Shown: positions 4,310 through 8,750, counted from the first letter of the whole stretch. The stretch is 63,068 nucleotides of DNA, filler included, from Reclinomonas americana ATCC 50394 (GCA_048213135.1; 8 parts of 3 records of this genome joined end to end with filler, not necessarily neighbours in it), one strand, 5' to 3'. The notes: generated by a model not told the origin, from the letters alone. Numbers and translations are program-made.

Positions 4310-7300
4310 ATGGTGCGTGTCTCCTCACTCACACACTCTCTGCCATACACTCGCTCACTTTCCCTGTGTCTCCGTGCAGTCCTTCCCTGTCCACTTTTGC
4401 CTCGCCGATGGCACCTCACGCATCACGGTGCCCGATGTCACTGGCGACACGCGACTGTGCGACCTTGTGCAACGCGGCTTGCACCTGCTGGGGGTCGCTG
4501 CAGATGCGCGTGTGCGTGTGCGGTCGGATGTGGTGCTGCGGGCGTCAGATGAATCCACACTGCGAGACCTTGGCATCACGGCGGAGACCACGCTGACGGT
4601 GGATGTGGAGGGCAGCGGGTGCGTGGTCGTGTGTTTCTGAGAGGAGAGAGAGTTGTGCGACTTATCTGCGTGACGTGTGTGTGAGAAGAGCGAATAACTA
4701 CATGCTTCTGCAAGATGCGATGGGCATTGTGAGAGACGCACTGGCAGCCAGACTCCGCGCAGCGTTGCCTGCGTTCTGTCGCCTTCATCCCACCATGCGT
4801 ATCGATGAAGCGTGGTGCTGCAGGACTGTCCGAGAGATTCCTGCGCGGTTGGTGGTGGTGTTGCTCTTCTCCATCCACTTGCTTCGTTCTCATCCACAAG
4901 AATGTGTGCTCTCGCAGCTACAAACCCGGCGGCAAGCACGTGTTCTTGCAACACAATGAGCAACAAGCTCATGTGCTCACATGGAAGGCAGCATTCGATG
5001 CAGATCCCACCAGCACACCGCAGTGCCCGCCATTCGACTTGACGGCACTCTGCGCGATCCTGGTGAATGGTGGATTCGTGGAGGATGATGGCAGCTCCCA
5101 TTTCGTCCTTGCCTCGGATGCAGAGGTCAGTGCTCTGCTCTCTTTTCGCCTTGCTTGCCGTGATGCTCACCACGTGTGCAGCGTCGAGCGGTGGCGAAGT
5201 TGGGTAAAATACGCAACACTGTTGTTGGCCACCGCGATCAACCTATCGCTGTCGCCGATGAAGTCACCGACCTGCTCGGCGATGGTGTTGTTGAGGGGCG
5301 TTTGGTGACGGCCATCTCATTGCTTCATCTCGACGATGCCCCCCTCACCCACTTTCTTGCATTGTTGGAAGACATTCGCACAAGTGAGTCTGATGTGAAT
5401 CTCTTCGTCTTGTGTCCACCTAAAGAATGCTCTCTCTTGCAGGACGACATCATATTTCTGATGCGGAGTTCGCTGCGTTGCTTGAGGGCTATAGTGAGCG
5501 CGAATCGTCAGCATTCCGCGAGGACGAGAGTTTGCGCAAGACACTGGAGATGTACGTACCGCTGACGACAAAAGCCGGTGGCGTGTCACGAGACCTGCTG
5601 TCGGAAGTAGACGCATTCGTTGCCGACGACAATCGCGCACGCGTCTTGTTGTTCCTCGGCAACAGTGGAGCTGGCAAGACAACTGCAATGACGGTGATGG
5701 CGGATCACGCATGGCGAGCATATCGAGAAGGGCGCAGTCGGCGACTGCCCGTGCGTGTGCCGTTGTCGGCGTTGCGTGACGTGGAGCACTGCATGCTGGA
5801 AGAAGTGCTTCCGGTGACGTGGCCGGAGGCTGCAGTGCAGCGCGTCAAGCAGATGCCACTGTTGTTGCTATTGGATGGGTATGACGAGCTGTACCGTGAG
5901 ATCAATCTGATGGACACTGCGCAGGTTTGCTTCATCCCTCCTCATCTCATTCTTGTCTGTCTCATGTGACGGATTCGTGACTGATTGGTGTGCGAACAGC
6001 TTGGAGGGTGTACCGATGTCAAAGTGATTGTGACATGTCGTGCAGATTATGCAGCAGGCATGGGTTTGGGTGGAACCGATTACCGTCGCTTTTTCGTTCC
6101 CACGAACGGCAGTGGTCGTGCGGACTTGCAATTGTTGGTGGAGCGCACGGTGGAGCCATTCAACGACGCTCAAATTGAAGAGTACCTCCAGCACTTTGTC
6201 ACGCATCAACCTGCAGAGTGGCGGACAGTGGACGAGTATCGTCTTGCGCTGCGTGGCATGCACGGAGTGCAACTGTTGATTACAAATCCGTTCATGCTGT
6301 CGGTGGTGGTGCAAGTGTTGCCGCTGTTGGTGGCGAGTGCAATGAGGGAGCGACCGACTCGGCGCGATGTGTTTGACCGATTCATTCGTCAGTGGATTGC
6401 GAGAGAGCAGGAGAGACAGACGCGTCTTGGCGCGGATCGTGTGCCGCGTGAGGATTTGTGTCTCGCGTTCTGTGAGGGACTGGCACGATTGATGCACGAG
6501 GGAAATATGGTACGTGTGAAGGTGGCTGAGAGCCAAGAAGTTGACCATGCGGAAGACGACTTCGGTGGCGCGTTGTCAACAGCCGGGCGCCAAGAACCGA
6601 AACAAGAGGGACCGTTCGACAAGTTCTTCGGTTATAAAAACCAGCACGTGCGAGTGTGCTGTCCGATTGTGCGACGATATGGGACGGATCAGTGGGGATT
6701 CGTGCATCTGTCGTTGTTGGAGCACTGTGTGGCGCGACATGTGTTTGCGTGGGAGACGTGGGATGAGGTGGAGAGGCGGTTGACGATAGAAGATGTGCAG
6801 CAGCATGTGTTGGCAGTGCGACTGCTGAATGATCGACCATCGTTGGTGGAGCAGATCGCCGAGGTGGTGCGACGATCTCCTGCGTTGCAAGCGAGACTGT
6901 GGGAGGTGATTGAGATGTCACGAGAGGTGGATGAGGAGCGAGTGGTAACAGCATCGGCGAATGCAGCAACGGTCTTGTGTGTGGCGCAAGTGTCGTTCAG
7001 TGGGCGGGATCTGTCGGGTGTGCGAGTGAGGGGTGCGGATTTGAGGGATGCGGTGATGCACAGGACGTTGTGGAGGGAAGCTGATTTGCGAGGGGTGAAT
7101 GTGTGCATGGCGTATGCGAGGAAAGCGGATTTCAGGGGGGCGGATGTGAGGCGTGTAAAGTGGCCGAGAAAGCCGATTGTAGGCCATGCTGGTAGGGTTT
7201 CTTCTGTTGCCGTCATTTACGATGCTAAGTTCAGTGTCTTCATAGTGAGTGGCAGTTGGGACAAGACTGTACGAGTGTGGTCGCTGGCAAGTGGGAAAGA

Positions 7301-8750
7301 CTTACACCGACTGAAAGGCCATTCTGGCGCAGTGTGTGCAGTAGCGGTGACACCCTATTGCCAGCATATTGTCAGTGGCAGTGAGGACAAGACTATACGG
7401 GTGTGGTCCCTTGCGAGTTTCGAGGAAACGCGCCGACTGGTAGGCCACACTGGCACGGTGTTTGCAGTTGCAGTGACACCCGATGGCCAGCACATTGTGA
7501 GTTGCAGTGGGGACAAGACTGTACGGGTGTGGTCGATGGCAAGTGGCGAGGAGGTGCGCCGATTGGAAGGCCACACGATGTCGGTGTGTGCAGTGATAGT
7601 GACACCCGATGGCCAGCACATAGTGAGTGGCGCTTGGGACAAGACTGTACGGGTGTGGTCAGTGGCAAGTGGCGAGGAGGTGCGCCGACTGGAAGGCCAC
7701 ACGAGTTGGGTGCTTGCGGTGACTGTGACAGTCGACAGCATGCACATAGTGAGTGGGAGCAGCGATAGGACGGTGCGAGTGTGGTCACTGGCGAGTGGGG
7801 AAGAGTTGCGGCGGATTGAGGGTCACACTGACGCAGTGTTTTCTGTCGCCGTTACTCCCAATAGGCAGCACATTGTGAGCGGCAGCGAGGACAAGACTGT
7901 GCGAGTGTGGTCCCTGCCGGAAGGCTACGAAGTGCGACGATTTGAAAGACACGTTGAAACAGTGACGTCTGTTTCCGTCTCACCCGATGGCCGGCACGTT
8001 GTGAGTGGCAGTGGGGACAAGACTGTACGAGTGTGGTCGCTGGCAAGTGGCGAGGACGTGCGCCGTCAGGAAGGACACACGAATTGGGTGTGGGCAGTGG
8101 CAGCGACAACCGATGGGCAACACATTGTGAGTGGCAGTCGGGACCAGACTGTGCGAGTGTGGTCGGTGGCAAGTGGCGAGGAGGTGCGCCGATTGAATGG
8201 TCACACGAGTGAGGTGCGTGCAGTGGCAGTGACACCCGATGACCAGCATATCGTGAGTGGCAGTGCTGACATGACTGTACGGATGTGGTCATTGGCGAGT
8301 GGGGAGGAGTTGCGCCGACTGGAAGGCCACACGAGTTCGGTGTCTGCAGTGACAGTGACCCCCAATGGCCAGTATATTGTAAGTGGCAGTGTGGACAAGA
8401 CTGTACGGGTGTGGTCGATGTCAAGTGGTGAGGAGGTGCGCCGACTGGGAGGCCACACGGATGTTGTGACTGCAGTGGCAGTGACATCCGATAGCCAGCT
8501 CATCGTGAGTGGTGGTAACGACAAGACTGTTCGGGTGTGGTCGCTGGCTGCTGGTAAGGAAATGTGTCAGAGCACGCAAGAATATCTCCAGACGTTATTG
8601 TCTCGCACTTCCTTGGCTGTCGGTTGCTCTGGCAACTGCGTTCACATCCACCGGCGACATGGACGAAGAGAATTACTCGAGCGAATCATCGGCCCAGTCC
8701 GCCCTGACTTCGTCGATGCGAAAGTTGATACTAGCTGCACTCTCCTGTGA
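4310..8750 (+). CDS. NLR-like STAND protein copy 1: Ubl-HEPN-like-NACHT-pentapeptide-WD40x11-CaaX
   Basis: Exons 4310-4312 (ATG), 4380-4618, 4689-4847, 4918-5125, 5182-5383, 5443-5924, 6000-8750 splice in frame via GT-AG. Walker A GNSGAGKT; NACHT Walker B LLLLDGYDE; FxH (FVHLSLLEH); AxL pentapeptide repeats; 11 WD40 repeats; ends CTLL. Confidence 0.9.
7182..8570 (+). repeat. Coding ~126-bp WD40 tandem array (11 units), NLR copy 1
   Basis: Repeated GHT..V.AVAVTPDGQHIVSGS.DKTVRVWS.ASGEEVRRLE. Confidence 0.95.

Follow-up and report, generated by a model that had tools for sequence, protein, structure and literature searches.

Proteins of the signal transduction ATPases with numerous domains (STAND) class are modelled as receptors in which a ligand binds to a repeat region, nucleoside triphosphate (NTP)-dependent oligomerisation follows and proximity activates a domain at the head of the protein (PMC7159879; Kibby et al., bioRxiv 10.1101/2022.07.19.500537). 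Those with a NACHT domain include the HET-E/HET-D/NWD (HNWD) family of Podospora anserina (PMC1805685), animal proteins in which a DZIP3-like HEPN domain precedes NACHT (PMC9646362; PMC3710099) and bacterial NACHT proteins, whose defence against phage depends on the Walker A lysine (Kibby et al., bioRxiv 10.1101/2022.07.19.500537). Here we describe three paralogous genes from a stretch of 63,068 nucleotides (nt) of Reclinomonas americana ATCC 50394 (GCA_048213135.1), the whole of which is referred to below as the window. From N- to C-terminus the encoded proteins consist of a probable ubiquitin-like (Ubl) domain, a helical orphan domain of 190 amino acids (aa) in the effector position, a NACHT NTPase, a pentapeptide beta-helix, 11-12 WD40 units and a CTLL box. 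We regard them, with moderate confidence, as three functional copies of an NLR-like receptor that belongs to the STAND/NACHT class and is lineage-restricted; a HEPN-type RNase is the best guess for the head, and their role is most likely that of an innate-immune or self/non-self receptor.

The likeness to the HNWD family extends from the layout to the behaviour of the repeats. Both groups share an effector-NACHT-WD40 order, 42-aa repeat units that are alike and two pairs of hypervariable sites, and in both the units are exchanged within and between paralogues and differ in number (PMC1805685). However, the HET domain required in the HNWD family was not found in the paralogues when their N-terminal exons were compared with Pfam, and searches with exon 6 and exon 7 detected no sequence kinship to fungal NACHT-WD40 proteins. 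The paralogues also differ from HNWD in the pentapeptide beta-helix between NACHT and WD40, in the Ubl and orphan helical domains of the head and in the terminal CTLL.

For the head, the nearest described systems are those of animals. The pearl oyster has more than 50 NACHT genes with an N-terminal DZIP3-like HEPN domain and leucine-rich (LRR), tetratricopeptide (TPR) or WD40 repeats (PMC9646362); NACHT fusions of the DZIP3 family and its expansions in Nematostella, oyster and Capsaspora have been tabulated, as have Ubl-HEPN fusions for Sacsin and KEN (PMC3710099, Table 1). The word HEPN does not occur in a survey of fungal NLRs (PMC4986451). With the animal DZIP3/hRUL138-like HEPN-NACHT proteins, the paralogues share an N-terminal helical domain with an Rx4-6H string (N after R), NACHT and C-terminal repeats (PMC9646362; PMC3710099), and in both cases the genes form tandem, copy-number-variable clusters. 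Unlike the paralogues, the animal proteins are not reported to have a Ubl, a pentapeptide stretch or a CaaX box in the relevant sections of these two papers, which also report no functional tests. Because PF18738 did not match the helical domain of the paralogues, membership of the DZIP3-like group is not established. The resemblance to RNase L and Ire1 (with KEN-type HEPN domains), and to the bacterial STAND defence proteins bNACHT and Avs is one of proposed logic, in which a sensor drives oligomerisation and thereby juxtaposes effectors, and not of membership; the paralogues lack the kinase, ankyrin and 2-5A sensor parts of RNase L/Ire1.

Three stretches of the window (4100-8900 on the plus strand, 25350-30300 and 31900-36800 on the minus strand) align over ~4.4 kb with ~80-95% identity in most blocks of 100 columns, and tblastn found only these three family copies within the window. 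The exon model of copy 1 was read from the DNA alignment, adjusted to GT-AG splice sites and transferred to copies 2 and 3 by alignment column. Copy 1 (4310..8750, plus strand; stop codon 8748-8750) has exons at 4310-4312, 4380-4618, 4689-4847, 4918-5125, 5182-5383, 5443-5924 and 6000-8750. Copy 2 (25500..30048, minus strand) has exons at 30048-30046, 29978-29740, 29667-29509, 29440-29233, 29175-28974, 28911-28430 and 28352-25500, and copy 3 (32037..36572, minus strand) at 36572-36570, 36504-36266, 36189-36031, 35972-35765, 35706-35505, 35444-34963 and 34889-32037. These models give intact open reading frames (ORFs) of 1347, 1381 and 1381 aa and bear out the original prediction of three paralogues with a common seven-exon layout. 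The first six exons are of equal length in all copies (3, 239, 159, 208, 202 and 482 nt), the last measures 2751, 2853 and 2853 nt, and the phases are the same. Each copy has six introns of 56-77 nt, all 18 beginning with GT and ending with AG, and these short GT-AG introns indicate that the source is a eukaryote. Exons 2-6 contain no gap columns in any of 15 pairwise comparisons (83-96% identity), whereas the introns contain 1-12 in every one of 18 (46-88% identity); this confinement of gaps to the introns supports the exon/intron division from sequence comparison. Outside the WD40 array, dN/dS was 0.12-0.34 in all 15 region-by-pair comparisons, which together with intact ORFs of more than 1340 codons rules out pseudogenes, and the copies differ by 10-20% in DNA and are therefore not assembly duplicates. 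All three are thus genuine genes, on which purifying selection acts outside the repeats.

The start codon directly abuts an intron in all three copies, the ATG being followed at once by the GT of the donor, so that the first coding exon gives methionine only. In copy 1 this codon (4310..4312, plus strand), the sole coding part of exon 1, precedes a 67-nt intron; this junction lies within 4310-4379 in copy 1, 30046-29979 in copy 2 and 36570-36505 in copy 3. Exon 2 of copy 1 contains no in-frame ATG. Homology of copy 1 with the other copies starts 5-30 nt upstream of the ATG, and the sequence further upstream is not alignable in frame. As an alternative start of copy 1 we considered the in-frame ATG at 4265 and rejected it, since copies 2 and 3 do not preserve the frame over the stretch 4265-4310. 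In copy 2, intron 4 (29176-29232, minus strand) has 57 nt and no in-frame stop, compared with 56 nt for its counterpart in copy 1 and 58 nt in copy 3; if retained in copy 2, it would add 19 residues shortly before the RNxxxxH motif described below and leave the frame unbroken.

The WD40 array of copy 1 (7155..8540, plus strand) matches PF00400 in 11 stretches (E 4e-119). The period is a strict 42 residues, with 11, 12 and 12 units in copies 1, 2 and 3, in line with the 11-12 repeats that had been predicted; there are possibly more blades if degenerate units are counted. Mean pairwise identity among the 35 units is 65% (range 26-88%); units of ordinary WD40 proteins seldom exceed 10-20% mutual identity (Paoletti et al., PMC1805685). 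Sites within the unit were analysed in 31 of the 35; the four left out are unit 1 of every copy, which is divergent, and unit 8 of copy 3, which has 41 aa. Unit sites 17, 19, 35 and 37 carry 10, 12, 11 and 9 different residues, while the intervening sites 18 and 36 are each occupied by a single residue, V and D respectively. By pairwise counting, pooled pN/pS was 1.38 at the four hypervariable sites (bootstrap over units 1.11-1.83) versus 0.32 at the 37 other sites. With the hypervariable codons excluded, the nearest neighbour of a unit lay in the same gene in 13/31 cases and was the equally numbered unit of another copy in only 2/31, and unit 4 of copy 1 and unit 5 of copy 3 are among the pairs reaching 95% nucleotide identity. 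This pattern of nearest neighbours indicates that units have been exchanged both within and between genes.

In Podospora HNWD the selected codons are 7, 9, 25 and 27, paired around the constrained codons 8 and 26, and they map to the top face of the propeller, to its d-a loop and its b-c turn (PMC1805685). Sites 17, 19, 35 and 37 of the paralogues have the same spacing and register with an offset of ten, which arises because the start of the unit was chosen elsewhere. The WD40 array has a hypervariable surface with repeat exchange, a strong sign of a recognition surface, and the paralogues are very probably NLR-like sensors in which this surface is diversifying. The effector-NACHT-repeat layout of NLR-like STAND receptors that had been claimed for them is present in its three parts, with WD40 as the putative recognition surface.

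Exon 6 (5443..5924, plus strand) encodes a pre-NACHT linker and the N-terminal half of NACHT; it matches Pfam NACHT (PF05729) with E 9e-8 and 32.6 bits against a cut-off of 26.7, and by itself covers model positions 1-98 of 167. The Walker A motif GNSGAGKTT (5658-5684), which fits GxxGxGK[ST], and the Walker B motif LLLLLDGYDE (5859-5888) are invariant in the three copies. D[GAS]hDE has been described as the diagnostic signature of the NACHT subclade (Kibby et al., bioRxiv 10.1101/2022.07.19.500537), and DGYDE of the paralogues fits it. The first part of exon 7 (6000..6983, plus strand) encodes the rest of NACHT, its C-terminal half, together with the helical region that follows, as placed by alignment with a protein of Cyanophora paradoxa (P0001, below). 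Next come ~65 aa of pentapeptide repeats (6984..7184, plus strand), which form a beta-helix; here, exon 7 residues 329-395 match Pfam Pentapeptide (PF00805) with 28.2 bits against a cut-off of 20.2, and solved pentapeptide proteins among the PDB sequences with E 3.4e-11. The original prediction had named both domains, and both stand above their Pfam cut-offs.

Relatives of this central part were found in a glaucophyte and in bacteria, the paralogues' own proteins not being present in the collections searched. A search with exon 7 residues 1-400 found 57 proteins at E<=1e-3 among 8000 scored candidates, most of them covering the pentapeptide stretch only. The best match was P0001 (Cyanophora paradoxa EP00741_P016113), with 27% identity and 94% coverage of this query; its alignment with spliced copy 1 (residues 290-815 against 480-1003) starts ahead of Walker A, extends as far as the pentapeptide repeats and then goes on into WD40, with 26.5% identity over 566 columns. 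The core is shared by P0002 (1539 aa; a Gammaproteobacteria metagenome-assembled genome (MAG), locus L001) and by P0056. A scan of one genome per prokaryotic species gave 14 loci, the longest matches being to the Gammaproteobacteria MAG (24%, query residues 56-387) and to a Legionellaceae MAG labelled Naegleria (23%, residues 90-399). The corresponding ORFs, the closest prokaryotic ones to the core, lie at 1651-6270 in L001 and 4269-8639 in the Legionellaceae locus L002, both on the plus strand, and the latter has Pfam matches to NACHT, Pentapeptide and WD40. Both ORFs also carry a ~280-aa unannotated C-terminal extension after the WD40 array, which matches no Pfam family.

P0001, P0002, L002 and P0056 resemble the paralogues at 23-27% identity throughout the core, that is, in the pre-Walker A segment, the helical region, an 'ANA-T-L' stretch, the pentapeptide repeats and WD40; the region after the AAA+ fold, at the position of a winged-helix or helical extension, appears in alignment to correspond to the same region of P0001 and P0002. 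Their heads, by contrast, are swapped: P0056 has an Mrr-type nuclease (Mrr_cat), P0001 a head of 480 aa unrelated to that of the paralogues, and P0002 and L002 have none. None of the four has the Ubl or helical domain of the paralogues, and none ends in a CaaX box. Because of this variety of heads, the NACHT-pentapeptide-WD40 core is, as judged from these alignments, a module that already exists and whose heads can be exchanged. When exon 6 and exon 7 residues 1-325 were used in homologue searches, which were limited by a word filter, nothing was found at E<=0.01, and among metagenome loci a query of exon 7 residues 1-330 and one built from the aligned exon-6 products of all copies gave pattern matches and no relative. 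For the paralogues' own head, no relatives were detected in the collections searched with its partial probes.

Exons 3-5 (4689..5383, plus strand; 4689-4847, 4918-5125 and 5182-5383) encode this all-helical orphan domain of ~190 aa (residues 82-271), for which dN/dS is 0.20-0.31 and which had been proposed to be a HEPN domain with an Rx5H motif. The motif itself, RNTVVGH in copy 1 (5212..5232, plus strand; R214 to H220), reads RNSVVGH and RHAVVGH in the other copies, so that R214 and H220 are kept in all three and the residue after R is N, N and H. The HEPN motif Rx4-6H prefers a polar residue (N, D or H) after R, and its R and H are required in KEN and PrrC (PMC3710099); the residue after R in the three paralogues agrees with this preference. 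The probes used for this domain were exons 3, 4 and 5 singly and P0058, a 155-aa read-through of exon 4, intron 4 and exon 5 of copy 2 (28975..29439, minus strand) that is the sole contiguous one; the probes were incomplete, lacking exon 3 or including 19 intron-coded residues. In an AlphaFold2 model of P0058 of low confidence, the motif is placed where helix 87-103 ends and extends into the next loop; upstream of it the model has two helices and an insert that is not helical, and downstream a helix with a kink. This order would match the published description of HEPN domains, with helix 3, an insert and helix 4 and with the motif at a helix end (PMC3710099). In the ESM Atlas the top look-alikes of the domain (0.92; 186/256 features) were mollusc and cnidarian clusters with HEPN_DZIP3 (PF18738) on 11% of members, and further ones carried HEPN_DZIP3 (38%) with DUF4559 (37%) or, at 0.89, HEPN_Swt1 (39%). 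Eight of the ten best family-bearing hits share a family or clan. DUF4559, which we take to be the CXorf38 HEPN family, accounts for 11-37% of members in the look-alike clusters.

From these comparisons, the case for a HEPN identity of the helical domain appears evenly balanced, and an active RNase effector is somewhat less likely than that. We have not assigned the domain to HEPN, and a HEPN-type RNase is the best single guess. The proposed motif is kept in three of three copies, but the proposed family received no profile, sequence or fold match. A FERM-like head, made of an F1 Ubl and an F2 helical part, was also considered and rejected, because no FERM profile matched and the helical part resembled HEPN families, not FERM_M, in the ESM Atlas.

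Exon 2 (4380..4618, plus strand; residues 2-81) had been described as encoding a Ubl-like module of ~80 aa. The 79 aa of this exon matched no Pfam family at E<=10 and had no usable match among PDB sequences. An AlphaFold2 model built from the three copies had moderate confidence (pLDDT 63, pTM 0.52), and DSSP assigned to it strands at 2-7 and 14-20, a helix at 26-36, a strand at 47-54, a helix at 58-63 and a strand at 69-76, which is the order of a beta-grasp fold. Foldseek with this model gave no match at E<=0.001 and VIA-align none above noise, whereas in the ESM Atlas the exon's recognition value exceeded the tool's line and the exon fell, at 0.90-0.91, near clusters with Rad60-SLD on 22-36% of members and with ubiquitin on 29-82%. 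The order of elements in the model and the ESM Atlas lead thus speak for the predicted module, profile and Foldseek searches do not, and we consider that exon 2 probably adopts a Ubl fold.

At the other end, CTLL stands directly before the stop codon in all three copies, as predicted (8736..8747 in copy 1, plus strand), and has the form of a CaaX-type box with X = L. A CaaX box has its Cys in the fourth position from the C-terminus and, with X = L, directs geranylgeranylation, and the paralogues, to judge by this motif, may well be prenylated at CTLL. The last ~250 nt of copies 2 and 3 are 99-100% identical to each other and copy 1 is only ~55% identical to them there; likewise, its tail of ~70 aa is only about half identical to theirs.

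A number of observations weigh against the interpretation of these genes as receptors with a HEPN-type head, most of them concerning the helical domain. By pattern alone, the helical region holds three Rx4-6H strings in copy 1, three in copy 2 and two in copy 3, and each protein as a whole holds 15-16; such strings are so frequent by chance that the motif alone carries no weight. Exons 3, 4 and 5 singly and P0058 matched no Pfam family at E<=10 (including the HEPN families PF18738, PF15112, PF18731 and PF05168), PADLOC and NCBIfam scans gave no matches for the helical exons and nothing usable for the Ubl exon, and a comparison of the helical-domain probe with PDB sequences gave noise only. A phmmer search with P0058 of 1.84 billion representative proteins gave no true relative; its single match, P0059, is a 24-fold tandem-repeat protein and was set aside as an artefact. 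The model of P0058, although all-helical with the motif at a helix end, has a pLDDT of 41, so that the helix positions are unreliable. The ESM recognition value of 1830 falls below the tool's line of 2300, with the named family on a minority of cluster members, and the HEPN look-alikes are thus a lead only. Beyond the head, the internal identity of 65% in the WD40 array compares with ~85% in fungal repeats of high internal conservation (PMC4986451), and the pN/pS values are crude pairwise counts among shuffled repeats with no tree-based test. As the 3' ends of copies 2 and 3 are near-identical, CTLL is backed by two independent sequences and not three. Finally, the splice junctions are derived from alignment and GT-AG sites, and the acceptor of intron 2 is weak (AAG with no pyrimidine tract), copies 1 and 3 having a second AG 3 nt upstream.

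By analogy with described STAND proteins, a mechanism can be proposed in which the top face of the WD40 propellers binds a variable ligand from a pathogen or a non-self cell and this binding releases autoinhibition of NACHT. NTP-dependent oligomerisation would then bring the N-terminal domains together at a membrane, on which the receptor would be held by a geranylgeranyl anchor at the CTLL box. HEPN RNases such as RNase L and Ire1 act as dimers. An RNase site would arise on forced dimerisation if the head is a HEPN domain, and cleavage of RNA could then stop translation or kill the cell. Ligand sensing, oligomerisation, prenylation, RNase activity and an immune role are what we infer for the paralogues. 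The predicted chain from WD40 ligand through oligomerisation to an RNase finds its support at the sensing end, in the pN/pS contrast (1.38 versus 0.32) and the shuffling of units; the RNase at its effector end is a candidate, for which the evidence is the Rx5H motif and a sub-threshold ESM lead.

The alternative nearest to this interpretation keeps the NLR-like receptor and changes its head. The 190-aa helical domain would then be a new effector or adaptor, such as a membrane-disrupting or homotypic signalling bundle, that becomes active after oligomerisation at a membrane to which CTLL anchors the protein. This is possible, if less likely than a receptor of the HEPN type. It would account for the lack of a HEPN profile, sequence or fold match, for the chance frequency of Rx4-6H strings and for the failure of the partial helical probe to find a relative in the 1.84 billion proteins; moreover, fungal NLRs often begin with a helical domain of the cell-death type, for example HeLo, HeLo-like, Goodbye or SesA (PMC4986451), and the putative C-terminal lipid anchor would suit an effector that acts on membranes. 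However, Pfam gave no match to HeLo, Goodbye, SesA, Death or FERM_M either, the ESM Atlas look-alikes bear no family names other than HEPN_DZIP3, HEPN_Swt1 and DUF4559, and the polar residue after R and the position of the motif at the end of a helix, the latter in a low-confidence model, fit HEPN.

Two further explanations concern the role of the proteins. Conspecific self/non-self recognition like that of het-d/het-e, in which WD40 variants would recognise allelic products after fusion or contact and kill the mixed cell, draws on the agreement with the WD40 pattern of Podospora HNWD in its alike 42-aa units, hypervariable pairs, unit exchange and variable unit number, here 11, 12 and 12 (PMC1805685). 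The same pattern is, however, expected of any receptor under diversifying selection, and with neither a HET domain nor kinship to fungal NACHT-WD40 proteins in the searches run we consider this explanation improbable. A non-immune origin, as a regulated scaffold or housekeeping NTPase duplicated by chance, or as decaying or misassembled copies, is more improbable still and can largely be set aside. The window is a chain of gapped contigs, and non-immune NACHT-WD40 proteins such as TEP1, named as an early NACHT clade of eukaryotes by Kibby et al. (bioRxiv 10.1101/2022.07.19.500537), do exist; yet the intact ORFs and low dN/dS speak against decay and the 10-20% DNA differences against misassembly. 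Hypervariable top-face sites and repeat shuffling are likewise not expected of a scaffold, and the lack of an orthologue in any searched collection argues against a conserved housekeeping role.

For the receptor with a candidate HEPN head, the claim that its combination of domains was not known from any described system holds for the full string but not for its parts, since HEPN-NACHT-repeat proteins are described in oysters, cnidarians and other animals and NACHT-pentapeptide-WD40 occurs in Cyanophora and bacteria. The general design is therefore not new. A literature search found no published Ubl-HEPN-NACHT-pentapeptide-WD40-CaaX string and no HET-E-type WD40 array outside fungi; possibly new, in that they were not found in print, are thus the full string with its Ubl, pentapeptide spacer and CaaX box and a HET-E-type WD40 array in a non-fungal genome.

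The surroundings of the three genes were also examined. Seven identical spacers of 100 nt, each made of 44 N, TTAATTAATTAA and 44 N and giving stops in all six frames, join the contigs of the window (10386-10485, 20961-21060, 37054-37153, 40707-40806, 45130-45229, 49560-49659 and 54823-54922). As the window is such a chain, order and distance across the spacers are no evidence of linkage, and copy 1, which lies on another contig than copies 2 and 3, need not neighbour them in the genome. Further runs of N in the window are gaps. AT-rich islands with N runs of 178-685 nt at 1-2000, 14000-16000, 52000-53000 and 56000-62700 (32-41% GC versus 50-60% elsewhere) are probably withheld stretches or ones that are repeat-rich or poorly assembled, and the microsatellites (CT)n, (GAAA)n, (GGA)n and (GGGAA)n are abundant at contig ends and between genes (3000-3340, 10340-10385, 45090-45129 and 49520-49700).

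Copies 2 and 3 form a head-to-tail tandem duplication of 5.9 kb (24469-30347 versus 31001-36888, 85% identity), and the duplicated unit also includes the 3' part of a histidine-phosphatase gene. Pieces of this His_Phos_2 gene lie at 23781-25447 and 31049-31984 on the plus strand, convergent with copies 2 and 3; because the duplication spans only its ~3' kb, the second piece is probably a partial duplicate. Copy 1 is adjoined by a 413-aa ORF of RNI-type LRR (9146-10384, minus strand; LRR_6, E 8.8e-19), which is cut by the spacer at 10386, and NACHT was not found on the minus-strand ORFs upstream of it, beyond that spacer. The window further contains a calcineurin-like phosphoesterase (metallophosphoesterase; 17998-18807, plus strand), a prenyltransferase alpha-alpha toroid fragment (21135-21512, minus strand), a short-chain dehydrogenase (22219-22623, plus strand), Prp19 with WD40 and a Prp19 motif (50790-52631, minus strand) and a MIZ/Nse2-type zinc finger (53131-53997, minus strand), and Rfam and tRNA scans of the whole window gave no hits. 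The neighbours of the three paralogues are ordinary genes.

NLR-like STAND receptors are known in animals, plants, fungi and bacteria and are hardly charted in other eukaryotes, and the family described here addresses the question of how often the layout of effector, switch and sensor has arisen independently. It adds a eukaryotic case whose core is nearest to glaucophyte proteins and to bacterial proteins of an intracellular type, amoeba-associated and Legionellales-like, and which combines a head with no detectable relatives and a WD40 sensor that matches the diversification of fungal HET-E site for site. In its boldest form, which we regard as doubtful, the family would be a non-animal eukaryote's own lipid-anchored NLR, with a Ubl-HEPN RNase head that lies outside the catalogued HEPN sequences, the NACHT-pentapeptide-WD40 core and a WD40 array that diversifies by fungal-type shuffling and selection at four sites. 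If this were true, it would be the third independent case of this receptor diversification, after fungi and animals, and the first prenylated NLR-like protein. Were the head an RNase and CTLL lipidated, an RNA-targeting abortive defence would be linked to a membrane-anchored NLR; if the head is not HEPN, it would be an uncharacterised effector domain worth solving. Finally, the three paralogues provide a small and tractable set for testing the shuffling of repeats as a source of receptor diversity.

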